DNA of 31,860 bases from a virus (Duplodnaviria; Heunggongvirae; Uroviricota; Caudoviricetes), in the IMG/VR virus record IMGVR_UViG_2778261226_000007. One strand, written 5' to 3'. Below are positions 409-29,411 of the stretch, one piece after another. Within the stretch, counting starts at the first letter, position 1; each line of letters begins with the position of its first letter. A program made the translations under genes and the position numbers. The notes under the pieces were generated by a model. It made no database searches. It saw nothing but the letters and a program-made list of their open reading frames with translations, and was not told where the DNA came from.

Positions 409-764
409 CAGTGAGTGACCTCTTCAAAGGTACAGTTAAAATCGGTATACATGGCATTATCCGAAATGCTCCACTCCCTGCAGACAACCCGGACAGTCCT
501 GTTGTGTTTTGGCGGGCGCCACAAAAAAGCACGAATCCCGGCATGACGGGATAAAAAACTGTCCAGCGCGGCACGGGAGTATTCATCTGTGACACGAAAT
601 ACCGGTTTAAACGTTTTCAGATCCGCATTCAGCCCACCAGCCCGTCGCTGTTCATATCCGTCACCAAACTTTACCGTAATAACTGATGGCTTTCGTGTCG
701 TCTCCATCCCCTCACGGGGGATCCAGTTAAAAACTTCAGGCTCAGGCACTGTATAATCCTCCAT
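408..764 (-). CDS. Minor tail protein M (lambda gpM-like)
   Basis: Contains FGDGYEQRRAGGLNADLKT and SFLWRPP, resembling lambda gpM, and lies between the tape measure and gpL genes. Start is ambiguous: MEDYTV at 764 or METTRK at 707 (the latter has a GAGGGG RBS). Confidence 0.7.
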   Translation of the reverse strand: MEDYTVPEPEVFNWIPREGMETTRKPSVITVKFGDGYEQRRAGGLNADLKTFKPVFRVTDEYSRAALDSFLSRHAGIRAFLWRPPKHNRTVRVVCREWSISDNAMYTDFNCTFEEVTH

Positions 765-3700
765 CCCGACGCGATGACTGCATAATTGACACAACCCTGC
801 TGTCGATCAGATCCACCAGTCCCCTGGCTGAGCGCGTATCTATCTCGCCATTGCTCCCTTGATTCTGAATGCTAATGTGATACACGGGAGAATAAACAAA
901 TCCACCGCCACCATTCACATTGCCAATGGCTCTGACCCCAAGAGAGCCGTCCGCTGCCCGTGTCAGTGGCATGATAGCTTCAGGCCCGGCCTCGCCCATC
1001 AGCCCGGCACCTTTCGCAAAAGCAAAATACGTCGGTGTATCCACAATAGTGTTACTGTAAGCACTCAGATTTGCCGATGTGTAAACACCACCTTTTGCGT
1101 TTGCCACCGCCCCCGAAATCCATCCGCCGACCGTACCAAGCCACCCTCCGGCACCGGAGAGTGACTTCAGTCCGTTAACAATGGCCGCATTCATCAGAAT
1201 TTTTGAAACTTCCCGGAGAACTGAACTCCCCCAGTTCCTCCACTCCACAACATTCCCGGCCAGTGCATCGGAAATATTTGATACCAGCCCGTCCATCGTG
1301 GAAACAACAGCATCTGCCGCCTGTGAAGCATAATCGGTGGCACTGTCTGCCCAGTTGGTCAGTCCCTCCTGGAGTCCGGCATTCCAGTTATTACGTAAAG
1401 CATCGGCCTTTGCATAATAATCCTGCTGATCGCTGAGACGCTCTTCCAGATATTTTTTATTCAGTTCTTTCTCCTGTTTCCACAGGGCTTCTTCAATTTC
1501 TCCGGCCTGATACTGTCTCAGCAGCTCGTTATTTTTCTGCTCAAACTCATGCCGGATACTCCACATTTCCTGGAGTCGTTCACGCATCCGTGAGCCTTCA
1601 CCATATCCCAGCAACTGCGCGTCGTCAGATGCCCGGGCACTGGCATTACTGTCCGCCAGACTGCTTTCATACGCGGCAAGCTGCTCACGAATCTTTTTCT
1701 GGTCGATGAGTGCTGCATTCTGCAAAAGCGTTTTTTTCTGCGCTTCTGACAGGGTTGATAATTCGCCCTGACTGACCTGATATTTCATCTTAGCCAGTTC
1801 AGTATTCTGCCCTGCCAGTGCTATCTGTTCTTTTTGCTGTTTAATCAGCCGTTTATAAATATCTTCTGTTTTTTCCGCTTCGGTCTTTTTATGCGCTTTG
1901 GGTTTATTTGCCTGGTTATTTCGCCAGGCATCCAGTGAGTTATTGATATAATTCTGTCTGGCTGTCCGATACGCCTCTCCCACAAAGCCGAGATCATCCG
2001 CAGCATAGCCCAGTCGGGCACGCTCACGCGCTTCCCCCTTAAGGCGGGACAGAGCCAGTTCGCGCTTGCTGTTATTCAGTGCGGTCTGCTGTTTATCATC
2101 CAGAGTTGCCTGTGGTAGCCGTAACGGTACATTCACCAGCCCCTGTCGCTGCTGAAGTAATTCATTACCAAGCCCGAGAAGGCGATTAAACTCGGTATGC
2201 TTCCCATTCATGATCAACAGGGACTGATACGCTTTGTTTTGTTCCGCTGCCTGTTGACGGATCAACGCCACTCGTCGCTCCTCCAGCCCGGCAAGCACAT
2301 CCTGAATGGATTGCGCTTTGCCCTGCATTTGTGTGAGACGGGACTGTTCAACTGCCAGTTGATTTGTTGCTTCTGCAAGCCCTTTAAGGATGATTTCAGC
2401 ACCAGAACCACTCTGCGAACTTTCATCAAGCCAACGTTGATAATCAGCAATTTGATTTTTCAGTCCGCGAATTTTTCCTTCCTGTTCGTTAATCAGGCGA
2501 TTTTGTTCCTCCAGTGCCTGCCGCGTCTTTTCCTCATTATCTGACGCTTCAGGAAGCGACATTGCCGACGTTTTCTGACGAATTTCGTCGATTGTTGCGG
2601 CATACTGGCGTGCAGATTCTCTGGCCTGCTCCTGATTCTGATACATCGTGTACCAGGCCGTCGCCCCCAGCATGACGAGTCCCGGCACACCACCAACCAG
2701 CCCCAGCGCACCACTTAATAAACGACTCCCCACTGACGTGACAGTATTCAGCGTTGTCTGTGCTGCTGTTCTGGCCGCAATATTACGGGTAAGTGATGCC
2801 TGGGCAGCAGCCAGTTTCGCTTCTGCGGCTGCCTGTCTTTCAGTACCACGGGTAGCCGCGACCGCCTGTTGCGCACGATAAACCGCCGCACGCGCCCTGG
2901 CGGTTGCTATCTGCGTCCCCCGGAGCTGCGCTTCCGCAAGAGCTACTTCGTTTCTGGCTGCAGTAATTAATCCGGCAGTTGCAGATCCAGCAGAAGATGC
3001 CATATTGCCAAAATATCGGGCTACCCCGACGGCAACCAGAGCACCGGCAGCGGTTGCCACAGTGTCAATATTGCCTGCAATACCATTCAGCACACCGGAG
3101 AGCGTCTTCGTCACTCCGCTTGCTTCGTTCGCACCACCAACCCAGGCCATAAAGGCGTTTTCAACTTTGGTTGCAGAGGATGAAACCGTATCAGGCATTG
3201 CTGCATATTCATCACGCAACGCCCCAAGCTGACTAATCAGTGCAGGAACAACCTTATCGGCGGTCAACTTTCCGTTATCCGCCATGGCCTTCAGATCCTT
3301 ACGGGCAACACCCATTCCCGCAGCCAGCGCACGAATAACACGATCGCCGTTCTCATTCACAGAGTTAAATTCTTCACCGCGCAGCACTCCCTGCGCCAGT
3401 GCCTGACTGAACTGCGTGATCACCGAACTGGCTTCTGCTGCACTGGCACCGGATAATTTCAGGCCCGTGGAGATAGCCTCGGTGACTTTCAGTACCTCCT
3501 CAGAACTGTAGCCATACTCCCGCATGGAAGCTGCAGAGCGGGCAAAAAGGCTGGCGTTATCAGAAAACGCCGTTCCCGTTCTCTGGCTGATTGCCATTAA
3601 TTCACGTTGTGATACCTGAAAATCATCAGTGGACTGTGAGGCCTGCTTCAGACGGGCATTTACTGAATTCCACTCATCGGCGAGAGAAATAAGATGACCG

Positions 3701-3942
3701 GTAGCAAAAGCCCCGGCAAATGCCCCCGCCATATTCAGTGCCGAAGATTTAGCTGTATTTATCTGATCCGTCACTTCTGCCAGTGCACGCCGCATTTCAC
3801 GGGATGCAGCAGCGGACTGCCGGCCTCCGTTCTGCATGGTACGGTAGTAATCCTGCCCCATACGCGAAGCCCGGGAGATCTCTGACTGGAATGACCGGGA
3901 ATTTGCCGAGATTTTAATAATCAGCTCACGTAATGTCGCCAT
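742..3942 (-). CDS. Tail tape measure protein
   Basis: 1066-aa ORF with long Ala/Gln-rich coiled-coil stretches, located directly after the tail assembly chaperone pair as in lambda/HK97 tail modules. Confidence 0.9.
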   Translation of the reverse strand: MATLRELIIKISANSRSFQSEISRASRMGQDYYRTMQNGGRQSAAASREMRRALAEVTDQINTAKSSALNMAGAFAGAFATGHLISLADEWNSVNARLKQASQSTDDFQVSQRELMAISQRTGTAFSDNASLFARSAASMREYGYSSEEVLKVTEAISTGLKLSGASAAEASSVITQFSQALAQGVLRGEEFNSVNENGDRVIRALAAGMGVARKDLKAMADNGKLTADKVVPALISQLGALRDEYAAMPDTVSSSATKVENAFMAWVGGANEASGVTKTLSGVLNGIAGNIDTVATAAGALVAVGVARYFGNMASSAGSATAGLITAARNEVALAEAQLRGTQIATARARAAVYRAQQAVAATRGTERQAAAEAKLAAAQASLTRNIAARTAAQTTLNTVTSVGSRLLSGALGLVGGVPGLVMLGATAWYTMYQNQEQARESARQYAATIDEIRQKTSAMSLPEASDNEEKTRQALEEQNRLINEQEGKIRGLKNQIADYQRWLDESSQSGSGAEIILKGLAEATNQLAVEQSRLTQMQGKAQSIQDVLAGLEERRVALIRQQAAEQNKAYQSLLIMNGKHTEFNRLLGLGNELLQQRQGLVNVPLRLPQATLDDKQQTALNNSKRELALSRLKGEARERARLGYAADDLGFVGEAYRTARQNYINNSLDAWRNNQANKPKAHKKTEAEKTEDIYKRLIKQQKEQIALAGQNTELAKMKYQVSQGELSTLSEAQKKTLLQNAALIDQKKIREQLAAYESSLADSNASARASDDAQLLGYGEGSRMRERLQEMWSIRHEFEQKNNELLRQYQAGEIEEALWKQEKELNKKYLEERLSDQQDYYAKADALRNNWNAGLQEGLTNWADSATDYASQAADAVVSTMDGLVSNISDALAGNVVEWRNWGSSVLREVSKILMNAAIVNGLKSLSGAGGWLGTVGGWISGAVANAKGGVYTSANLSAYSNTIVDTPTYFAFAKGAGLMGEAGPEAIMPLTRAADGSLGVRAIGNVNGGGGFVYSPVYHISIQNQGSNGEIDTRSARGLVDLIDSRVVSIMQSSRRDGGLYSA

Positions 3943-3991: not shown

Positions 3992-4333
3992 TTATTGGCA
4001 AAACAACTTATATTTTTCCATACTGCTTGGATCATGATCATTAACAATTGTTACAGTCCCATGACTCTTAACTTTTCCATCCACAACTTCCAAATAAACA
4101 AAATATGGCTTTTTCCCTGTATATCCACCAAACGTGTTTTTTGAATTAACATCACCACAAACATAACCATATAAATCACCTGACTTATGAAAAAAAGAAT
4201 TAAATTTTGCACTATCAGGATCAATAAGCTTATCTTTAACTAAGTTTTCCCCTAAAGAAATAACATAATTATCTGATGGCTTACATGCACTAATAAAAAA
4301 CAAACAAGCTAATGTCACCACTGATTTTCTCAT
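3992..4333 (-). CDS. Small lipoprotein (moron-like insertion in the tail module)
   Basis: Start MRKSVVTLACLFFISAC gives a signal peptide plus lipobox Cys, with an AGGAGG RBS. The segment is visibly AT-rich compared with flanking tail genes. Confidence 0.6.
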   Translation of the reverse strand: MRKSVVTLACLFFISACKPSDNYVISLGENLVKDKLIDPDSAKFNSFFHKSGDLYGYVCGDVNSKNTFGGYTGKKPYFVYLEVVDGKVKSHGTVTIVNDHDPSSMEKYKLFCQ

Positions 4334-13029: not shown

Positions 13030-13380
13030 TCAGTTGATGCGTTCACGCGCTGTTTTCTCTTTGTGGCAGGGCCAGCACAGACTCTGCAGGTTGCTGTTTG
13101 CGTCTGTTCCGCCATGCGCTTTCGGGATGATGTGGTCGACAGTTTTCGCCTCGCTCACCACACCGACACGCAGACACAACTGACACAGACCTTTATCGCG
13201 CTTCAGAATACGGGCACGAATCACCGTCCATTTTGAGCCATAGCCACGCTGGTGGCGGCTCAGTCCGCGCTGGTGCTGCACCCAGCCTTCACCGCGATGC
13301 TTATCGCAGTAACCCGAACTGTCTGTTGTTGTGCCTGCACATCCACGCTTACGACAGGCGCGGGGTATTCGTGATGGCAT
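13030..13380 (-). CDS. HNH endonuclease
   Basis: Cys-rich ORF with HNH-type motifs (CQLC...DHIIPKAHGG...N...CWPCH), in the usual HK97-like position just upstream of the terminase genes. Confidence 0.85.
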   Translation of the reverse strand: MPSRIPRACRKRGCAGTTTDSSGYCDKHRGEGWVQHQRGLSRHQRGYGSKWTVIRARILKRDKGLCQLCLRVGVVSEAKTVDHIIPKAHGGTDANSNLQSLCWPCHKEKTARERIN

Positions 13381-13441
13381 TGGAATCTCCTTAATACCGG
13401 CATTATCGCAGCCCCTCGCTGAAGGGCTGCTGTAATGCCTG

Positions 13442-13744
13442 TTACTCAGTAACGACTGCGCCTTCCGGTAATTTCATACCTGCAAATACCGGACAACCAG
13501 GATGACGAGCATCTTCTGTTGCTTCCAGCATTGACTCACCAAACCACTCCGTCGTGGCGCGACCATCAGCAGCTTTGTAGTGGAGTAAGTACTGGTTTTC
13601 GCCATCCGCATACTGCGCGCGGGCTTTAACCTCACCCCATTCATCACTGATGCGCATCTCCACCAGTTGAGACAACTCAAACTTAAACGGAACAGCAGCG
13701 GCACCAATTGCAACCGGTTTGTTTTCTGTTTTTTCCATCATCAT
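13442..13744 (-). CDS. Hypothetical phage protein
   Basis: 100-aa ORF with a GGAG RBS, preceded by a terminator-like hairpin. Confidence 0.45.
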   Translation of the reverse strand: MMMEKTENKPVAIGAAAVPFKFELSQLVEMRISDEWGEVKARAQYADGENQYLLHYKAADGRATTEWFGESMLEATEDARHPGCPVFAGMKLPEGAVVTE

Positions 13745-13754
13745 CTCCAGATAT

Positions 13755-13778
13755 AAAAAAGCCCCGCATTTGCGGGGC
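13755..13778 (-). terminator. Intrinsic-terminator-like hairpin
   Basis: Minus strand: gccccgcaaatgcggggc followed by tttttt. Confidence 0.5.
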
Positions 13779-13800
13779 TACAAACAGGCATCACAGCCAG

Positions 13801-14016
13801 TTAGCTAAGTCCGACAGACATAAAATCATCACTACCTAAACGATGGGAACCATAACGAACTTCATACTCCCCATTCAATTCAGAGCGTTTAGACTTTGCG
13901 CCATCCTCCGTTGCATAAATGCCGACCAGATGCCAGGGTTTGTCACGTACTACAGCCCAACCAAGAACCCATCCCTGATTATCAGGATCAGCCTTCAGGT
14001 TATTTTCTACAAACAT
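13801..14016 (-). CDS. Hypothetical protein
   Basis: Start taken at MFVENN, which has an AGGAGA RBS. Confidence 0.4.
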   Translation of the reverse strand: MFVENNLKADPDNQGWVLGWAVVRDKPWHLVGIYATEDGAKSKRSELNGEYEVRYGSHRLGSDDFMSVGLS

Positions 14017-14056
14017 AGTGTTCTCCTTTTGGGTACCCAGAGACATTCTATGTCAT

Positions 14057-14281
14057 TCATGAAACAGGCAACAACGTGGCCGTTACAATCCCCGCCATAT
14101 TTGCGTTCAGATCACATTCAACAGAAATTTCTTCATCCGTGGCATCCACTTCATATGTCCGGGAATAACACTCCGTGCATTTACCACTGAAGATATCCTT
14201 AACCAGAACACGTCCACGCTGCAAAACCCTGAATGGAATCGTTCCGTTAAAGGGCTTTACGGTTACCAGTAATCTCTTCAT
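14057..14281 (-). CDS. Hypothetical small protein
   Basis: Start taken at MKRLLVTV, which has a GGAGGGG RBS. The longer ORF-track version is probably an upstream extension. Confidence 0.35.
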   Translation of the reverse strand: MKRLLVTVKPFNGTIPFRVLQRGRVLVKDIFSGKCTECYSRTYEVDATDEEISVECDLNANMAGIVTATLLPVS

Positions 14282-14454
14282 ATCCCCTCCGGATAAAAAT
14301 GCCCCTTGCCGCCCGGGCTGTTGTTCAAAGTTCATCCTGATTCGGCAAGATTCAGAATGTATAAGACAAATTGGCACACACAGCAGAATTTCATGCTTTC
14401 TGGACGCTGGCGCATCCTTCATTTTTCAGCGAAATATTCTGCTCTTACGGGCGA

Positions 14455-14637
14455 TCAGCTCTGCAGACACTGTCGAACACCGTCGACAATTTCGCAGACC
14501 TGAGAAGCCGTATCGAAAAGCTGGCGCGCCTTATCCAGGCTGACGCACCCCACCAATAAAAAAGGCACCAGTATCGCTACCAGTGCCCATTTTGCCGCCG
14601 CTCGCGGCATTCTGTGTGTCCGGTGTTTTCGGCTCAT
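14455..14637 (-). CDS. Small putative lipoprotein
   Basis: Signal peptide plus lipobox (ALVAILVPFLLVGC). Immediately preceded by an unlisted 36-aa hydrophobic ORF at about 14638..14748. Confidence 0.3.
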   Translation of the reverse strand: MSRKHRTHRMPRAAAKWALVAILVPFLLVGCVSLDKARQLFDTASQVCEIVDGVRQCLQS

Positions 14638-14884
14638 ATCACCACCAACGCACAGCCCAAATCAGAACAGCGACCGCCACAAGGCGAATTGCAAAGGCCG
14701 CAGCCCTTGTCAAATCAAGGCTCGCGGGAGTTTCCACTTCAATACCTTTCATAATGGACAACCTCAAAAAGAATCTTTTATACTTTCCCACGAGGATTTT
14801 CTCCGTACTCACTACTCACAATTTCCTCTTTGACGTGAAAACTAAAAACCCCGGACTGTTCCAGCAGCTGGGGTTTTGTTTTTT

Positions 14885-15166
14885 TTATTTACTGGTATGA
14901 GTACGGCATTTAGCTATTTCATCCCGGGCTTTACTGTCTCCGCGACAGATACAACGAACCGTGTCACCCGCCAGCGTGGTGATGTAGGCTTCATCCGTTT
15001 TTTCCACCGAAATGCATGGTACATTGCCATCCCGGCAATACTCCACTTGGGCAGCAAGGTGAGTGTTGCGCGGGTAAAATTCCAGGCGATACATATTCCC
15101 CAGAACATGCACTTCTTCAACCTGACGCCCATCTTCCATTACCGTGATTTTTTTCAGTGCGTACAT
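14885..15166 (-). CDS. Hypothetical protein
   Basis: Start taken at MYALKK with a GGAGGT RBS; flanked by terminator-like hairpins on both sides. Confidence 0.4.
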   Translation of the reverse strand: MYALKKITVMEDGRQVEEVHVLGNMYRLEFYPRNTHLAAQVEYCRDGNVPCISVEKTDEAYITTLAGDTVRCICRGDSKARDEIAKCRTHTSK

Positions 15167-15197
15167 ACGTACCTCCGTTCTTTCGTTTTTTGAGCAA

Positions 15198-15219
15198 TAA
15201 AAAAGCCGCTCATGGCGGC
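15198..15219 (-). terminator. Intrinsic-terminator-like hairpin after the endolysin gene
   Basis: Minus strand: gccgccatgagcggc followed by tttttt. Confidence 0.5.
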
Positions 15220-15236
15220 CCTGTATGTTCTGCAAG

Positions 15237-15620
15237 CTATCGTTTCAACTGAAAGTGAGGCCCATCCTTTAATGACCGCCACTCACCGCCCCATTCGATG
15301 GGGGTATTCAGCTCTTTCGCTGCCTGCTTAAATGCCTGCGCGATTTTCTCGTACAGAGGCCAGTCCCATGACACCTGGCTGCCAACCCAGGCAACAACAT
15401 CCACCGCATCACCGGTCAGGTGGCGGCTGTTCATGGTCTGGCTTTTCCCTTCCGCGACCAGCTGTTTCTGGCGTTCTTTCGTGCGCAGCCCTTCCGTAAT
15501 ACCGAAATCAACCTCCGTCAGCTCCAGCGCACGGCGAACGACAGCAACCAGCTGTGGTTTAACGCCCTCCAGATTCTTTTCGCTGCGACGACTGAATCTG
15601 AATTTACCCGACATATTCAC
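15237..15620 (-). CDS. Endolysin, peptidase M15 family (L-alanyl-D-glutamate peptidase type)
   Basis: 127 aa; SRHLTGDAVDVV looks like an M15 zinc-binding motif. Last gene of the lysis cassette, with its start overlapping the upstream membrane protein stop. Confidence 0.7.
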   Translation of the reverse strand: MNMSGKFRFSRRSEKNLEGVKPQLVAVVRRALELTEVDFGITEGLRTKERQKQLVAEGKSQTMNSRHLTGDAVDVVAWVGSQVSWDWPLYEKIAQAFKQAAKELNTPIEWGGEWRSLKDGPHFQLKR

Positions 15621-15892
15621 CTCAACAATGGAAAGATTTTTGTGACGTTCCCGCGTGCGCGTATCACCAGCACGCAGAACAGCAGGTTAAAAAACACTTC
15701 CAGCCAGCCCGTTGCTAACGGGCGACCACACAGATAGCTGAGGGGCGCAAAGGCATACAGCAGCATCAGCAACCAGGCCAGCCATGACATCAGCGGTTTA
15801 TGTCTGGAATCACGACGACGATAAAAAAAGAGCGTCAGCACGATAACCGTGCATAACGCCACATTCAGCAATCCGGGAAGGTTACTTAACAT
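15617..15892 (-). CDS. Small membrane protein in the lysis cassette (holin/antiholin-like)
   Basis: 91 aa, two or three hydrophobic segments, GGAGGAGG RBS. Overlaps the upstream holin-like ORF and is ATGA-coupled to the endolysin. Confidence 0.5.
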   Translation of the reverse strand: MLSNLPGLLNVALCTVIVLTLFFYRRRDSRHKPLMSWLAWLLMLLYAFAPLSYLCGRPLATGWLEVFFNLLFCVLVIRARGNVTKIFPLLR

Positions 15893-16274
15893 TGCCGCCT
15901 CCTCCACCCCGCAGGCGGGAGAACAGGCCGGACACCAGCGATGCAATATCCTGCTGGTGGATGAACGAGAGAATCTTCACCGACACCACGGCCACCAGCA
16001 CCGCACACAGTGCATCCGCCGATGTACCGTCATAACCTGTTTTTGATGCAATCCAGGCTGACAGCACATGCGCACCCAGCACGCCAACGATAAACGACAC
16101 CAGAAAATGCGCCGCCACACGCCAGGCTGAAAGCGCCTGCGGCATCGTTGCCACAAATAACGCCCCAGCGAACGCCCCAAACACAATCCCGAAATCCGTT
16201 CCGGTAAACAGCCCGAATACCGTCGCCCCGCCGAGCGCCGCAGCCGTACCGGAACCGGACAAGGGTTCAGACAT
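15882..16274 (-). CDS. Putative holin
   Basis: 130 aa with several Gly/Ala-rich hydrophobic helices. Start taken at MSEPLSG with an AGGAGA RBS. First gene after a terminator hairpin. Confidence 0.5.
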   Translation of the reverse strand: MSEPLSGSGTAAALGGATVFGLFTGTDFGIVFGAFAGALFVATMPQALSAWRVAAHFLVSFIVGVLGAHVLSAWIASKTGYDGTSADALCAVLVAVVSVKILSFIHQQDIASLVSGLFSRLRGGGGGNVK

Positions 16275-16292
16275 ACTTTTTCTCCTGTAAAT

Positions 16293-16314
16293 AAAAAAGG
16301 GCCACTGTCGGCCC
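16293..16314 (-). terminator. Intrinsic terminator immediately upstream of the lysis cassette (tR'-like position)
   Basis: Minus strand: gggccgacagtggccc followed by tttttt, about 20 nt before the holin RBS. Confidence 0.55.
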
Positions 16315-16404
16315 GTAAAAAAACAACACCCCGTCAAAGGCACCCGCAGATACCTTTTGTGTGGTGTTATCTGATGTGATGTGCGCCGGACGTGGCGCGG
16401 ATAT

Positions 16405-16428
16405 AAAAAAGGCCCGCCGCAGCGAGCC
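16405..16428 (-). terminator. Terminator-like hairpin after the AraC-family gene
   Basis: Minus strand: ggctcgctgcggcgggcc followed by tttttt. Confidence 0.45.
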
Positions 16429-16453
16429 TGTTTTCAATGAGTGCAAAATTCAA

Positions 16454-17197
16454 TTATTCTTGAGTAACACTTAAACTCATCTCATTGAATGCAGCCATCC
16501 TGTAACCTGCCGGTGTAACACCAAAATAACTCCTGAATACGCTGATAAAATAAGATGTAAAATTATAGCCACACTGAGCAGCGATTCTGTTGATGGCGCA
16601 ACGAGATTGATTCAACAGCATTGCTGCCATTCTCATTCTCTCTGTAAGCAACAACTCACTGAAACAGGTGCCTTCTTCTTTCAGTCTTTTTTTTAACAAA
16701 CTTTCACTGATACATAACCGCGAAGACACATCTCTCAGAGTCCAGTTTGCTGCAATGTCCGTACGAAACAATGCACTAAGCCTGTCACTAATATTGCCAA
16801 TACACGCGGTCAGAAACGACGAAAACATTTTCTCTGATGAGAAAAACGCCAGACACGAAAAGGAAAGCATTTCCGCTAAATTGTCCGTATGAATCTTTTC
16901 CTCACAAAGATAATCAATCAGGATGCCCATCAATTCTGCCTTGGGAAAACTCACGCAAAGATATCGTGGTATTTGCCGGACTAAAACTACATCCTGTTTT
17001 TCGTCTCCACACAACAGGTAACGGATAATTGTCGATTCACTGAGACTTATTCGCCGAAAACATTCCGAAAAGGGCAATAACGATCCAGCTCCCCCCCTGA
17101 CAAGAAGTGCACTACCACTTTCCAGAGAGAGCTCTTTTCCTTCAAAGAGCACAACAAACGGGGAATGAACAAAAACAACAGAACAAGCTTCATTCAT
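16454..17197 (-). CDS. AraC-family transcriptional regulator (AT-rich cargo gene between Q and lysis genes)
   Basis: C-terminal AraC-type double HTH region. Segment is visibly AT-rich; start taken at MNEACSVV. Confidence 0.8.
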   Translation of the reverse strand: MNEACSVVFVHSPFVVLFEGKELSLESGSALLVRGGAGSLLPFSECFRRISLSESTIIRYLLCGDEKQDVVLVRQIPRYLCVSFPKAELMGILIDYLCEEKIHTDNLAEMLSFSCLAFFSSEKMFSSFLTACIGNISDRLSALFRTDIAANWTLRDVSSRLCISESLLKKRLKEEGTCFSELLLTERMRMAAMLLNQSRCAINRIAAQCGYNFTSYFISVFRSYFGVTPAGYRMAAFNEMSLSVTQE

Positions 17198-17319
17198 ATC
17201 AATTGCCCTGACATTACTGGTCACAAGATAAGTATATATCGATTTACAAAAATACAAGCCGAAAGACCAGTATTCGCAACCACCAGCGCGTTTAACGTCC
17301 TGTACCGTTTTTCAGGCAT

Positions 17320-19183: not shown

Positions 19184-20575
19184 TCAAAAGAAACGCTCCA
19201 TCTTACTGCTGTCGGTTCGCTTATTGCTGTATCTGCGCGGCTGGGGCTGCTGCATTGGGGTGGAAAGAATCTGTGCGCTTTCCTGGTCTACGGGCAGAAA
19301 ATGTCCGTTATAAAAACGCCGGTAAATCGTCCCCAGAGAACCGTTACGTTGTTTCGTGATATTGATTTCTGCAATGCCTCTGGCCTGCGTATCCGGGTTG
19401 TACACTTCATCCCTGTAAAGCATCAGAATGATGTCTGCATCCGCCTCTATTTCTCCGGAATTTTTCAGGTCTGAGTTCATAGGTCGTTTATTGGGTCTGG
19501 ACTCAACTCCACGGGAAAGTTGGCTCAGCGCAACCACCGGTAATCCGCCGGATTTTGCCAGGCCTTTAAGCCCTTTTGATATTTCCCCCACGGCAAGGTC
19601 ATGACGTCCTATGGTACGGGTTTTTATCAGCCCGAGATAATCAACCACCACCAGCGCCGTTTCCGGGTGTTTAATCAGATGGTGTTTCGTTGTTGCGCAT
19701 ATTTCATCAATGGTCAGGTTCGCCTGGTCCACCATCCAGATATTGCGTCCGGTCATCAGCTCCACCCCCTTAATGAAACGCGCCCAGTCTTCGTCACCAA
19801 AGTGAGAGACAGATTTCAGGCGCGATACAGGCATTCCTCCGGCAGCAGACACCATGCGTTCACCGATCTGAATGTTCGCCATTTCCATTGTGAACAGAAG
19901 AACACCATGCCCCTGCTCAGTCACCTTGTCGATGATATCCAGCGCCAGTTCGGTTTTGCCCATTGACGGACGAGCCGCAATAAATACCAGATCGCCGGGC
20001 TCCATGCCGCCTGTTTTTGCGTCCAGTTCATCAATACCGGTCATCAACGTTCTGGATTTTTCCAGTCCCTGATTCCGGCATTCAACACGGTCAACCACCT
20101 CCGGAAGCACATCATCAATATGTACCGGCTGAATAATGCCCTTTTCCGTCGACAATGAAGCCATCATGTTCTGCGCATCCTTCAGGACATCTTCAGCTGC
20201 TTCACAGGTATGCGCATCACGTAATTTCTGCAGCGCCTCATTCAGTGTTTTTTCTGCATCACGCAATGCAGCATTGCGCCGCAACGCTGCAACATAGTGC
20301 TCCAGTGAAGACTTCACCCAGGTTTTACGCCCGGTATCAGTAATCACCGGAGCAAGTTCCGGCATTTCATTACACAGCAGCACAGGATCAATCACACCTG
20401 AAACACGAGCCTGTCGGCAGATGCCTGTGTAGATATCCCTATACGCTCGTACAGAAAAAACGTCCGCTGGCAGTGTGGCCAGAATATCCATCACTTCATG
20501 ATCTGCCCCACGCAGAAAAAACGCGCCAATGACAGCGCCTTCCAGATCATCGTTACGCCATACTGGAGTGGTCAT
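19184..20575 (-). CDS. Replicative DNA helicase (DnaB-like)
   Basis: 463 aa with Walker A (ARPSMGKT) and the overall DnaB C-terminal RecA-like organisation. Confidence 0.85.
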   Translation of the reverse strand: MTTPVWRNDDLEGAVIGAFFLRGADHEVMDILATLPADVFSVRAYRDIYTGICRQARVSGVIDPVLLCNEMPELAPVITDTGRKTWVKSSLEHYVAALRRNAALRDAEKTLNEALQKLRDAHTCEAAEDVLKDAQNMMASLSTEKGIIQPVHIDDVLPEVVDRVECRNQGLEKSRTLMTGIDELDAKTGGMEPGDLVFIAARPSMGKTELALDIIDKVTEQGHGVLLFTMEMANIQIGERMVSAAGGMPVSRLKSVSHFGDEDWARFIKGVELMTGRNIWMVDQANLTIDEICATTKHHLIKHPETALVVVDYLGLIKTRTIGRHDLAVGEISKGLKGLAKSGGLPVVALSQLSRGVESRPNKRPMNSDLKNSGEIEADADIILMLYRDEVYNPDTQARGIAEINITKQRNGSLGTIYRRFYNGHFLPVDQESAQILSTPMQQPQPRRYSNKRTDSSKMERFF

Positions 20576-21459
20576 GCAGCCACACCTCCAATATGCGCAC
20601 GATAGCTGGGCCAGTTAAACGACAACCAGTTGCGTCCCCCGTCTGTGATCCTGTCGGCAATGCGGGGGCTGATGAACGCCCACAACTCTTCCGGTGAAAG
20701 GTTGCTGATCAGGATGGTGGGCAGGATGCTTTCGTACCGGGCATTGATAATTTCCTGCAAAATAGCCATTTCAGCCGCGCTGCCAAACTGAACGCCGACT
20801 TCGTCGATGATCAGCAAATCCAATGACGCATAATGCTCAATAACTTCATCCGCTGTTTTTTCGCTGTCATTCCGCCAGCAGTTTTTCACAGCACGGGTAA
20901 GGCGCATCACATCAGTAATCTCCACACTGGCCAGATGGTTACGGATGATGTGTTTTGCCATAGCCACAGCCAGATGATTTTTTCCGGTACCACAACTGCC
21001 TGTCAGAACAAGACTGGTACCGTTAGCCAGAACATCCTCCCAGCTCTCTGCATAGCGGCGGCAGGCAGCAAGATTTCTGGCTGCATCAGAGTTAATCTCC
21101 TGATAGTTTTCAAACTCACAGTCGCGAAACCTACAGGCAACACCAGCATTCTCAATCAGCACATCAGCTTTCATTGCAACCAGAGTCCGATGTGTCACAT
21201 CCATTTCATCCACCAGACACTCCGGACAGCGGGAAATTTTTGAGACAGCGCCCCCCTGCCGATCATCCCACACCAGTATATGCGTACGATATTTACCGTG
21301 TTTTTCGCAGCATCCAACCCCTTCAGATTCCCGGCAGGCGCGGTAAGGCCATGGCTTTTCGCCATTCTGAGCAAATGCAATCTCTGCCCGTAACTCATCC
21401 ATTCGCGCCTGTAGTCTTGTTTGTTTCTCACGTTGGTTAATCGTCATCATCGCTGTCAC
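20572..21459 (-). CDS. DnaC/IstB-like AAA+ helicase loader with N-terminal Cys-rich region
   Basis: Walker A GSCGTGKNHLA and Walker B LLIIDEVG; N-terminal Cys cluster; start overlaps the upstream gene's stop. Confidence 0.75.
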   Translation of the reverse strand: MTAMMTINQREKQTRLQARMDELRAEIAFAQNGEKPWPYRACRESEGVGCCEKHGKYRTHILVWDDRQGGAVSKISRCPECLVDEMDVTHRTLVAMKADVLIENAGVACRFRDCEFENYQEINSDAARNLAACRRYAESWEDVLANGTSLVLTGSCGTGKNHLAVAMAKHIIRNHLASVEITDVMRLTRAVKNCWRNDSEKTADEVIEHYASLDLLIIDEVGVQFGSAAEMAILQEIINARYESILPTILISNLSPEELWAFISPRIADRITDGGRNWLSFNWPSYRAHIGGVAA

Positions 21460-28398: not shown

Positions 28399-28587
28399 AT
28401 GAGACTGTATTTCACAATAGTAATTTTACTGGCAATTATCGCATGCATTTACGGATTACTCGTTCCGTTCCTTATATCCATGAAGGATACGATAGCAGTT
28501 ATTTCTGGCTTTGCACTGGCGTTTCTGACCCCGCCCTGCATTTATGCCATTTACAAGGGTCTTTCTTTCACTAAGGATAAAAGATGA
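28399..28587 (+). CDS. Small membrane protein (two predicted TM helices)
   Basis: Hydrophobic 62-aa ORF whose stop overlaps the SPFH gene start (ATGA). Confidence 0.5.
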   Translation: MRLYFTIVILLAIIACIYGLLVPFLISMKDTIAVISGFALAFLTPPCIYAIYKGLSFTKDKR

Positions 28588-29411
28588 AAAAAATTATTTT
28601 TGCTTTAGCCATTGTTCTGCCGACTATTGGCCTTGTCGGTTGCGATCGCGTTGAACCAGGTAATGTTGGCATCAAGGTAAATAAACTGGGCGACGACAAA
28701 GGCGTCGGTGAGGTGGTCGGTGTTGGTCGCTACTGGACTGGCTGGAATACTGAAGTTTATATCTTCCCCACCTTCAAACAAATGAAGACCTACGATGAAC
28801 CGTTCAGTTTCCAGATGAGTGACGGTACAACCATCGGCTATCACATTGGCGTGGCCTACAAAGTTGATCCATCCAAAGTTACCACGGTGTTTCAGACCTA
28901 CCGCAAAGGCGTGGATGACATTACCGACACTGACCTGCGCCAGAAGATCGCCGACGCACTCAACCGACTGGCCAGCAAAATGACCACTGACAAATTTATC
29001 GACGGCGGCAAGTCTGAGCTGCTGGATGAAGCTCTTAAAGACATTCAGGCAGAGATGACACCTATCGGTATTCAGGTAATGAGCCTCTCATATGTGGGTA
29101 AGCCGGAGTACCCGCCAACCGTTATCGACAGCATTAATGCCAAAGTCACGGCAAACCAGAAAACCCTGCAGCGCGAGCAGGAAGTCAAGCAACGTGAAGC
29201 GGAGGCCAACATGCTACGTGCGGAAGCTGCCGGACAGGCTGATGCCATTCGAACAAAAGCCCAGGCAGAAGCCGATGCCATTCGTTTACGCGGCGAAGCT
29301 CTACGCCAGAACCCAGGCGTCATGGAGCTGGAAGCCATCAACAAGTGGAACGGTACACTGCCGCAATACATGACCAGTGGTGCCAATACACCATTTATCC
29401 AGATTAAATAA
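28584..29411 (+). CDS. SPFH/band-7 domain lipoprotein
   Basis: Signal peptide with lipobox (LPTIGLVGC); SPFH-like core; C-terminal Ala/Glu/Gln-rich coiled coil (REQEVKQREAEANMLRAEAAGQADAIRTKAQAEADAIRLRGEA). Confidence 0.8.
   Translation: MKKIIFALAIVLPTIGLVGCDRVEPGNVGIKVNKLGDDKGVGEVVGVGRYWTGWNTEVYIFPTFKQMKTYDEPFSFQMSDGTTIGYHIGVAYKVDPSKVTTVFQTYRKGVDDITDTDLRQKIADALNRLASKMTTDKFIDGGKSELLDEALKDIQAEMTPIGIQVMSLSYVGKPEYPPTVIDSINAKVTANQKTLQREQEVKQREAEANMLRAEAAGQADAIRTKAQAEADAIRLRGEALRQNPGVMELEAINKWNGTLPQYMTSGANTPFIQIK

Follow-up and report, generated by a model that had tools for sequence, protein, structure and literature searches.

A putative lipoprotein in the spanin slot and a separately inherited membrane microprotein downstream of the endolysin in a phiP27-type lysis cassette

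Which gene product acts on the outer membrane when the lysis cassette of a prophage ends without a recognizable spanin pair? The question is raised by IMG/VR record IMGVR_UViG_2778261226_000007, a 31.9-kb stretch of Caudoviricetes DNA that we call the window; it is only part of a prophage, and our window scans report on the genes inside it. On its minus strand, past the endolysin gene, lie two small genes, one for a hydrophobic microprotein (TM37) and one for a lipoprotein precursor (Lpp60). An earlier sequence-only reading had proposed that the two might form a divergent spanin-like pair or else an unrelated small-protein module. Our comparison of gene contexts indicates that the apparent pair is the adjacency of two separately inherited genes. 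With a probability of roughly 0.55, we favor the reading that this phiP27-type cassette carries at its distal end a partnerless lipoprotein in the spanin slot together with an independent microprotein. The lipoprotein has already been catalogued as a putative outer-membrane spanin (o-spanin), by computation only. The elements concerned are the following.

14639 to 14752, minus strand: TM37, a predicted tail-anchored membrane microprotein of 37 amino acids (coordinates include the stop codon).
14638 to 14650, minus strand: the junction CGTTGGTGGTGAtATG, comprising the end of TM37 and the start of the next gene.
14455 to 14637, minus strand: Lpp60, a lipoprotein precursor of 60 amino acids plus stop (assigned from its open reading frame and lipobox).

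We analyzed the coding potential of both open reading frames (ORFs). The 60-residue lipoprotein ORF is present at 14637 to 14455. The hydrophobic ORF, which had been missing from the initial ORF list, exists as well, but it encodes 37 rather than 36 residues and spans 14752 to 14639 instead of about 14638 to 14748. The single nucleotide reported to separate the two genes is indeed there, with the TGA of TM37 at 14641-14639 and the ATG of Lpp60 at 14637. Among 39 unique related sequences, the ratio of non-synonymous to synonymous polymorphism (pN/pS) is 0.24 in frame for the mature part of Lpp60, compared with 1.30 and 2.24 out of frame, and 0.18 in frame for TM37, compared with 0.63 and 2.34. 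By this measure both ORFs are under purifying selection. The homolog of TM37 in Escherichia coli O157:H7 EDL933 differs from it by 18.5 synonymous and 4.5 conservative non-synonymous changes (rates dS 1.7 and dN 0.056), and dN/dS is 0.03 against the homologs from EDL933 and phage GER2 alike. The 60-residue start of Lpp60 is favored, with residues 1-9 being nearly invariant; a 51-residue form starting at Met-10 is common in annotations and was rejected, Met-10 often being replaced by Thr, Ile, or Val. Longer starts of TM37 (GTG 14812, 57 residues; GTG 14791, 50 residues) were considered as well, as PHROG profiles align to the protein from residue 8-9. The region upstream of the ATG carries 5- and 11-nucleotide indels between lineages, which break the frame, and has a pN/pS of 0.89. 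We rejected the longer starts because of these indels and the missing coding signal.

The Lpp60 precursor consists of the signal peptide MSRKHRTHRMPRAAAKWALVAILVPFLLVGC and the mature part VSLDKARQLFDTASQVCEIVDGVRQCLQS. Its n-region is very basic, with 6 Lys/Arg and 2 His among 16 residues, and is followed by the h-region ALVAILVPFLLVG and a Leu-Val-Gly-Cys lipobox, in which Cys-31 (codon 14547-14545) is the predicted lipidation site, as expected of an o-spanin signal. The residue at position +2 is Val, and because no inner-membrane retention residue is present, the lipoprotein is predicted to reach the outer membrane. The mature part comprises 30 residues with invariant Cys-48 and Cys-57, which would be periplasmic cysteines of the kind found in o-spanins. 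TM37 (MKGIEVETPASLDLTRAAAFAIRLVAVAVLIWAVRWW) has a hydrophobic segment at about residues 17-34 of its 37, followed only by Arg-Trp-Trp, and a Shine-Dalgarno (SD) sequence, GAGG, lies 9 nucleotides before its ATG. Neither protein obtained a functional name from Pfam, NCBIfam, or PHROGs, even at E values up to 5-10; Lpp60 matches phrog_7528 (E 1e-34), and TM37 matches phrog_4493 and phrog_1115, all three of them families of unknown function.

We next consider whether a conventional spanin is encoded in the window. The sequence-only reading had found no Rz/Rz1 pair behind the endolysin, and three scans agree with it. A lipobox scan of all window ORFs with all of their start codons returned only two further candidates, both distant from the lysis genes. 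No ORF in the window has the shape of an inner-membrane spanin (i-spanin), with an N-terminal membrane segment and a length of about 90-200 residues, and tblastn searches of the window with lambda Rz, lambda Rz1, and GER2 Rz gave no match below E = 0.09. TM37 itself was rejected as a type II i-spanin, as its membrane segment is C-terminal and it has no periplasmic domain.

DNA searches group this region with phiP27-like E. coli prophages, phiSTEC1575-Stx2k and phiP27 among them, at an identity of 90-96%. For phiP27, a "separated" two-component spanin system is listed in the computational catalogue of Kongari et al. 2018 (PMC6139136 supplements), made up of an i-spanin at 20348-20542 (64 residues, 32 of them periplasmic) and an o-spanin at 20706-20861 (51 residues, with a 30-residue mature part that is 83% helix). 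We mapped these coordinates onto the P27 record (NC_003356). The catalogued o-spanin is the 51-residue form of the Lpp60-family lipoprotein; in the corresponding interval (3453-3684 of our locus L002, record 20630-20861), the GenBank gene L32 (20630-20785) is out of frame with the conserved lipoprotein ORF (20673-20861). The catalogued i-spanin is a TTG-initiated ORF that runs antisense to a 90-residue ORF of phrog_36812 (E 5e-20) and has no PHROG match of its own. It is found only in P27 among ~175 related loci and is absent from our window. Once relatives are compared, the two-component assignment cannot be upheld, which suggests that the published entry for phiP27 should be revised. In the literature on P27 spanins, small RNAs in lysis cassettes, and orphan o-spanins, we found no experimental work on Lpp60 or TM37.

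We then asked how often the two genes occur together. A 306-nucleotide query comprising TM37 and Lpp60 was compared with 5,426 complete E. coli genomes. Of these, 1,471 contain at least a portion of it, and only 154 contain both genes. About 1,200 records fall into a band of 80-90% identity, and all 44 rows sampled from this band cover the TM37 part only; in 40 of the 44, the annotation reads "hypothetical protein" followed by "lysis protein", corresponding to TM37 and then Rz. By this estimate, TM37 precedes a complete Rz gene in roughly 1,200 complete E. coli genomes, or about a quarter of them. In O157:H7 EDL933, for example, the order is class II holin, lysozyme, TM37 (114 nucleotides), and Rz. 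The junction CGT TGG TGG TGA t ATG is identical whether Lpp60 or Rz lies downstream (for Rz in EDL933, GER2, and AR_451), and the last TM37 codons, Arg-Trp-Trp-stop, double as an SD-like sequence (GGTGGTGAT) for the next gene. In Citrobacter braakii (L165), TM37 itself is gone, and the junction is preserved upstream of Lpp60. Other related loci (L034 3662-3996, L049, L065, and L170 1975-2061) have different small membrane ORFs before Lpp60 or Rz, one or two per locus; these belong to phrog_1115 (48 residues) or phrog_4906 (44 residues) or are a 28-residue version that is barely more than a membrane segment. The TM37 of the window looks like a deletion fusion of the phrog_1115 and phrog_4906 ORFs.

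These counts bear directly on the idea that TM37 in the inner and Lpp60 in the outer membrane constitute a minimal two-component spanin. The genes are indeed adjacent and one nucleotide apart, in the window as in the 154 genomes mentioned, a membrane peptide is combined with a lipoprotein of outer-membrane type, and an inner-membrane protein with a C-terminal membrane segment has been deemed conceivable as an i-spanin in principle (Kongari et al., PMC6139136). Against this, Lpp60 occurs without TM37 in 42 of 123 non-redundant contexts (~40%) and in all distant family members, TM37 stands before complete Rz/Rz1 genes in the roughly 1,200 genomes, and elsewhere its place is taken by the phrog_1115, phrog_4906, or 28-residue peptides. 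The co-inheritance expected of an i-spanin and its o-spanin is thus not seen. In addition, TM37 has at most 3 residues after and 16 before its membrane segment and could not bridge the periplasm with a lipoprotein of 30 residues. We conclude that the distribution of the genes largely refutes a minimal pair, which we regard as highly improbable. Of the original suggestion, the lipoprotein remains spanin-like in position and build, whereas its pairing with TM37 does not hold, each gene being common without the other. The alternative suggestion of an unrelated module is correct in that the genes are mutually independent; both are, however, tied to the spanin slot of lysis cassettes. The strong constraint on TM37 and its fixed place before this slot suggest that it takes part in lysis or a related process, or else that it brings ribosomes to the gene behind it.

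We assembled the Lpp60 contexts from viral contigs, species-representative genomes, phage records, and E. coli genomes, yielding the 123 non-redundant cases. Homologs were found in Enterobacterales only (E. coli, Salmonella, Citrobacter, Cronobacter, Yersinia, and Lelliottia). The family is narrow, since species-representative genomes contain only 3 loci and a profile search of 1.84 billion representative proteins recovered only 23 clusters; this search gave no remote link to known spanins. Two subfamilies share the lipobox, a mature part of 27-32 residues, and the pattern Cys(lipid)-x16-Cys-x8-Cys. The lipobox Gly and Cys are invariant across the family, and the +2 residue is Val, Ala, Thr, Ser, Gly, or, in one distant member (P0178), Glu; it is never Asp, consistent with sorting to the outer membrane. 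An E. coli homolog of 70 residues (P0009) contains in its mature part a perfect 10-residue tandem duplication (QLFDTASQVC twice), which adds a fourth Cys.

The position of the gene is the strongest regularity we observed. Every intact Lpp60 copy in the 123 contexts has an M15 or GH108 endolysin gene at most 1.5 kb upstream. In 37 contexts with an M15 endolysin, Lpp60 starts at a median of 18 nucleotides past the endolysin stop with no intervening ORF, and where TM37 is missing, its start often lies 0-18 nucleotides after that stop or overlaps it. In Lelliottia, the homolog overlaps the 3' end of a GH108 endolysin gene next to an unrelated holin. In a Mu-like phage (with GemA, Mor, and a Mu-type portal), it overlaps the GH108 stop codon through ATGA. 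In a phage with Q antiterminator and a holin_3_1 protein (PF05106), it starts 4 nucleotides after an M15 endolysin, and in a second holin_3_1 context, 11 nucleotides after a GH108 endolysin. A further homolog is found in a prophage with lambda-type head genes. In total, the family spans at least four phage backbones and occurs with two types of endolysin and three types of holin that are unrelated to each other. Throughout, Lpp60 comes after the endolysin gene, irrespective of the backbone and of the type of holin or endolysin. No type II membrane ORF, that is, one with an N-terminal membrane segment and a periplasmic domain, lies beside Lpp60 in the contexts examined, and a cognate i-spanin is thus not seen there. 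In one of the records (L168, PP818812.1, "Actinobacillus phage vB_Apl-pPE4"), the Lpp60 gene is unannotated and the cassette is of the E. coli P27 type, with protein identities of 87-94%; the host assignment of this record to Actinobacillus pleuropneumoniae looks doubtful.

Lpp60 could be a true o-spanin whose inner-membrane partner is encoded elsewhere in the phage, is a holin-family protein, or is an envelope protein of the host. Lipobox, outer-membrane sorting signal, periplasmic cysteines, and place in the lysis cassette would all suit an o-spanin, the P27 member is catalogued as one, and the same census lists 31 genomes that have a lipoprotein without a linked i-spanin, while ~13% of its phages have no identified spanin (PMC6139136). 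However, the three holin types, two endolysin types, and four or more backbones have no other obvious gene in common, and the mature part, with its 27-32 residues, is helical and proline-free, quite unlike Rz1. We judge a true o-spanin with a partner of any of these kinds to be unlikely.

The main rival holds that Lpp60 is a late accessory lipoprotein, serving in receptor masking, in superinfection exclusion like T5 Llp or Cor, or in lysis timing, and sited where insertions are tolerated. Small disulfide-containing outer-membrane lipoproteins with receptor-masking or exclusion roles exist, and many inserted genes (for o116, a KilA-N protein, an Ais-like phosphatase, and PerC) are found in the lysis-packaging interval of these phages. 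On the other hand, the overlap with the endolysin stop or the gap of 0-18 nucleotides leaves no room in many phages for a promoter of its own, and the gene sits behind the endolysin rather than with tail or receptor-binding genes in siphovirus-like, lambda-like, and Mu-like backbones alike. Nor, in the 123 contexts, is an intact Lpp60 ever found together with Rz/Rz1. An accessory function of this kind is rather unlikely in our view, and we return to a lipoprotein that occupies the spanin slot.

In a published survey, 277 of 279 Shiga toxin (Stx) phages carried the Rz gene family (PMC8136144). In none of the 123 contexts does Rz lie upstream of an intact Lpp60. Two contexts that do contain Rz, in phage GER2 and in E. 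coli ML35, hold a broken Lpp60 with a frameshift and a TAG at codon 39. The order there is S, R, TM37, Rz/Rz1, an Ais-like phosphatase gene on the other strand, and the broken Lpp60; ~40 E. coli records fall into the same band of 60-80% identity. Decay of Lpp60 behind Rz/Rz1 is as expected if Rz/Rz1 had made the lipoprotein dispensable.

We compared Lpp60 with known proteins acting on the outer membrane. It resembles lambda Rz1-type o-spanins in its small size, its lipobox, the lack of Asp at +2, its periplasmic cysteines, and its distal position in the lysis cassette. It differs from them in lacking a credible i-spanin and in a mature part too short to bridge the periplasm. In contrast to the proline-rich, unstructured Rz1, mature proteins of the Lpp60 family are proline-free, amphipathic (helical moment 0.53-0.59 over 18 residues), helical, and of net charge -1 to +2. 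With unimolecular spanins (u-spanins) of the T1 gp11 type it shares the N-terminal lipobox and the placement of a single phage gene in the spanin slot. These proteins, however, end in an inner-membrane segment, whereas Lpp60 and its homologs have a polar Cys-x8-Cys end and no second hydrophobic segment. Colicin lysis proteins, or bacteriocin release proteins, are likewise tiny lipoprotein precursors with a mature part of ~30 residues and a LxGC-type lipobox, as in Lpp60. Produced last from an SOS-induced operon, they work on the outer membrane and have no partner in the inner one. Neither the precursor nor the mature part of Lpp60 matches the corresponding family PF02402 even at E values up to 10, and the two groups differ in mature sequence, Cys pattern, and context (colicin operon versus phage lysis cassette). 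A conserved signal peptide acting as a functional part, in the manner of colicin lysis proteins, was rejected, as distant homologs differ in this region and keep the mature Cys pattern. The disruptin of phage phiKT, gp28, is said to be a cationic peptide of the antimicrobial type without a lipobox. Unlike it, Lpp60 is predicted to be lipidated, and its mature charge ranges from -1 to +2. The disruptin provides a precedent for a spanin-less phage using one small peptide for the outer-membrane step (bioRxiv 10.1101/515445).

An AlphaFold model of Lpp60, of low confidence, consists of a helix (residues 12-45) and a β-hairpin (residues 49-56) with the two invariant cysteines at the hairpin base. 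The mature lipopeptide would probably form an amphipathic helix followed by a Cys-x8-Cys loop that is closed or cross-linked by a disulfide.

Three RNA-level elements accompany the two genes.

14840 to 14885, both strands: a bidirectional terminator (A-run, CCCCGG...CYGGGG stem, T-run) between the moron ORF and TM37.
14753 to 14800, minus strand: the conserved leader of TM37, defined by sequence comparison.
14553 to 14588, minus strand: an RNA hairpin resembling an intrinsic terminator, in Lpp60 codons 17-28, found in a terminator scan.

The hairpin within Lpp60 has the form GGGCACUGGUA-GCGA-UACUGGUGCCU and is followed by UUUUUUAUU (U6). Its two G-U pairs restrict it to the sense strand, the centroid structure has -17.6 kcal/mol, and the minimum free energy of the 61-nucleotide stretch is -22.2. 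It coincides with a second island of low nucleotide diversity (π 0.009), in which synonymous sites are almost frozen, including a rare ATA codon. Among 17 distinct versions of the hairpin, 97.9% of cells are paired; six pairs vary on one side, mostly remaining paired, and two pairs change on both sides in a single distant locus (L176), from G-C to A-U and from U-A to C-G. The loop variants are GCGA, GUGA, and GCAA, all of the GNRA type, as well as GCGG, UUGA, and UUAA. The GER2 pseudogene still has both hairpin and U-tract; the Mu-like member lacks them, and in another member they are reduced. Since the signal peptides of distant homologs differ, the conservation of this part of the gene is better explained by the embedded hairpin. 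We infer that it may be an intrinsic terminator that would halt non-antiterminated transcripts inside the gene.

The bidirectional terminator accompanies TM37 in Lpp60 and Rz contexts alike. Between it and the gene, the TM37 leader is 40/48 nucleotides identical to that of EDL933, and 32/33 over the part nearest to the ATG, at a divergence where synonymous sites are saturated; its π is 0.010-0.014. On the plus strand, the leader contains a promoter-like TGGACA-18 nt-TATACT (14755-14784), with the same hexamers in EDL933 and GER2. Convergent small RNAs at bidirectional terminators have been described in moron sites of enterohemorrhagic E. coli (EHEC) prophages (PMC4104026), and a small antisense RNA opposite the TM37 leader (window 14755-14885, plus strand) is a candidate here, though only a lead. 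Given such an RNA, TM37 might belong to a type I toxin-antitoxin-like unit as its toxin, or be under antisense control of another kind. In either case, the RNA would comprise ~90 nucleotides, from the site at 14755-14784 to ~14885. TM37 is a small hydrophobic peptide under strong constraint, the island of lowest diversity coincides with the promoter-like hexamers, a plus-strand terminator follows ~90 nucleotides on, and the folding energy calculated for the RNA is -29 kcal/mol (z = -3.4). Hok, Ldr, and TisB-type peptides resemble it and its alternatives in size (28-48 residues), in a single hydrophobic helix with an aromatic or basic end, and in possible antisense transcription. The promoter-like match, by contrast, is not significant on its own (one found, 2.8 expected by chance in the region), the predicted RNA misses both SD and ATG of TM37, and the conserved leader can equally be explained as a sense-strand translation signal. 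No type I toxin model in NCBIfam or Pfam matches TM37, no Rfam family scores above threshold in 13300-16600, and, unlike type I toxins, TM37 has a fixed place before spanin-slot genes and is translationally linked to them. We hold a type I unit to be quite unlikely.

Taken together, the gene contexts are best accommodated by a lipoprotein that fills the spanin slot and would perform or assist the outer-membrane step of lysis as the single phage component, acting alone or with a host partner. It might destabilize the inner leaflet through disulfide-linked amphipathic helices, activate a host enzyme, as colicin lysis proteins do, or bind a host envelope protein. TM37 would be an accessory or modulator of the lysis cassette, its translation feeding into the next gene. 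Because a bidirectional terminator lies upstream of both genes and a terminator-like hairpin within Lpp60, full-length mRNA would come mainly from Q-antiterminated late transcription, and the terminators could be a fail-safe against production of an envelope-active protein in the lysogen. It is possible, if on the doubtful side, that the Lpp60 family constitutes a new class of outer-membrane lysis effectors, lipid-anchored peptides of ~30 residues that replace the spanin complex, have no inner-membrane anchor and so would not operate by membrane fusion, and are gated by a terminator in their signal-peptide codons, with TM37 a widespread but unrecognized fourth component of lambdoid and Stx-phage cassettes.

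Several observations weigh against this reading. The lysis role of the lipoprotein is deduced from gene position and one pseudogenized lineage, and the decay of Lpp60 beside Rz is a single evolutionary event despite the ~40 genomes in which it is found. With a mature part of 30 residues, Lpp60 is too short to cross the periplasm to the inner membrane and cannot act through membrane fusion as known spanins do, a mechanism that requires an inner-membrane anchor. Comparison with annotated spanin families gave no significant sequence match; the sole hint is an alignment of the Lelliottia homolog with phrog_1275, "Rz-like spanin" (E = 0.008), whose aligned residues 21-61 begin in the signal peptide. 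The lysis-packaging interval is a known hotspot for unrelated inserted genes (morons), and the stretches we inspected are part of each prophage, so a distant partner gene is conceivable. The predicted local distance difference test score of the AlphaFold model is 66 overall and ~55 for the C-terminal half of the mature part. Finally, support for the hairpin other than its conservation is modest, as in a shuffle control for covariation 28-33 of 500 shuffles equaled the observed value, and both double-sided changes derive from one sequence.

The two genes are embedded in a cassette ordered on the minus strand as holin_8, holin_3_7, M15 endolysin, a Cys-rich ORF, the terminator, TM37, and Lpp60. 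Beyond Lpp60 on the same strand follow three small ORFs of unknown function, an HNH endonuclease gene, and the genes for the small and large terminase subunits. The upstream members are as follows.

15882 to 16274, minus strand: holin-family protein (PF16931, Phage_holin_8), by family profile match.
15617 to 15892, minus strand: holin-family protein with three membrane segments (PF05449, Phage_holin_3_7), by profile match.
15237 to 15620, minus strand: endolysin, an M15-family peptidase (Peptidase_M15_4, phrog_465), by profile match.
14885 to 15166, minus strand: Cys-rich ORF of 93 residues (phrog_33497, function unknown), its probable start being Met-24 of a 116-residue ORF.

The Cys-rich ORF is an optional insert between the endolysin gene and TM37 that is seen in only some related loci; having no membrane segment, it was rejected as a spanin. 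Just upstream of the holin genes, a 267-residue ORF (16454-17257, minus strand) has a C-terminal part that by eye resembles an AraC/XylS-type regulator, and a terminator-like site lies at 16429-16410. On the other side of the cassette, a sub-threshold Rfam match to GcvB (13753-13888, minus strand; 25.4 bits against a gathering score of 42, E = 0.008) lies between two small ORFs and ends at a strong terminator (13779-13760); it may represent a prophage small RNA, and EHEC prophages are known to encode RNAs acting on GcvB. Two lipoprotein ORFs are found far from this region. One, of 113 residues with the lipobox ISAC (3992-4333, minus strand), is located directly upstream of a 1066-residue ORF (742-3942) that is probably the tape-measure gene; the lipoprotein ORF lacks a C-terminal membrane segment, is distant from the lysis genes, and may be an inserted gene or encode an exclusion protein. 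The other encodes 275 residues with the lipobox LVGC, and its start overlaps by 4 nucleotides a 62-residue ORF with two membrane segments (28399-29411 for both, plus strand), a pair that has no relation to the lysis cassette.

Disruption of the outer membrane is the least understood step of phage lysis. A lipoprotein that occupies the spanin slot across four backbones without an inner-membrane partner would be a testable candidate for a non-fusogenic route, and a terminator within a signal-peptide coding region, if true, would be an unusual regulatory arrangement. TM37 (dN/dS 0.03), which annotations list simply as a hypothetical protein, stands before Rz in about one in four complete E. coli genomes, among them that of the O157:H7 reference strain, and may influence the lysis that releases Shiga toxin.

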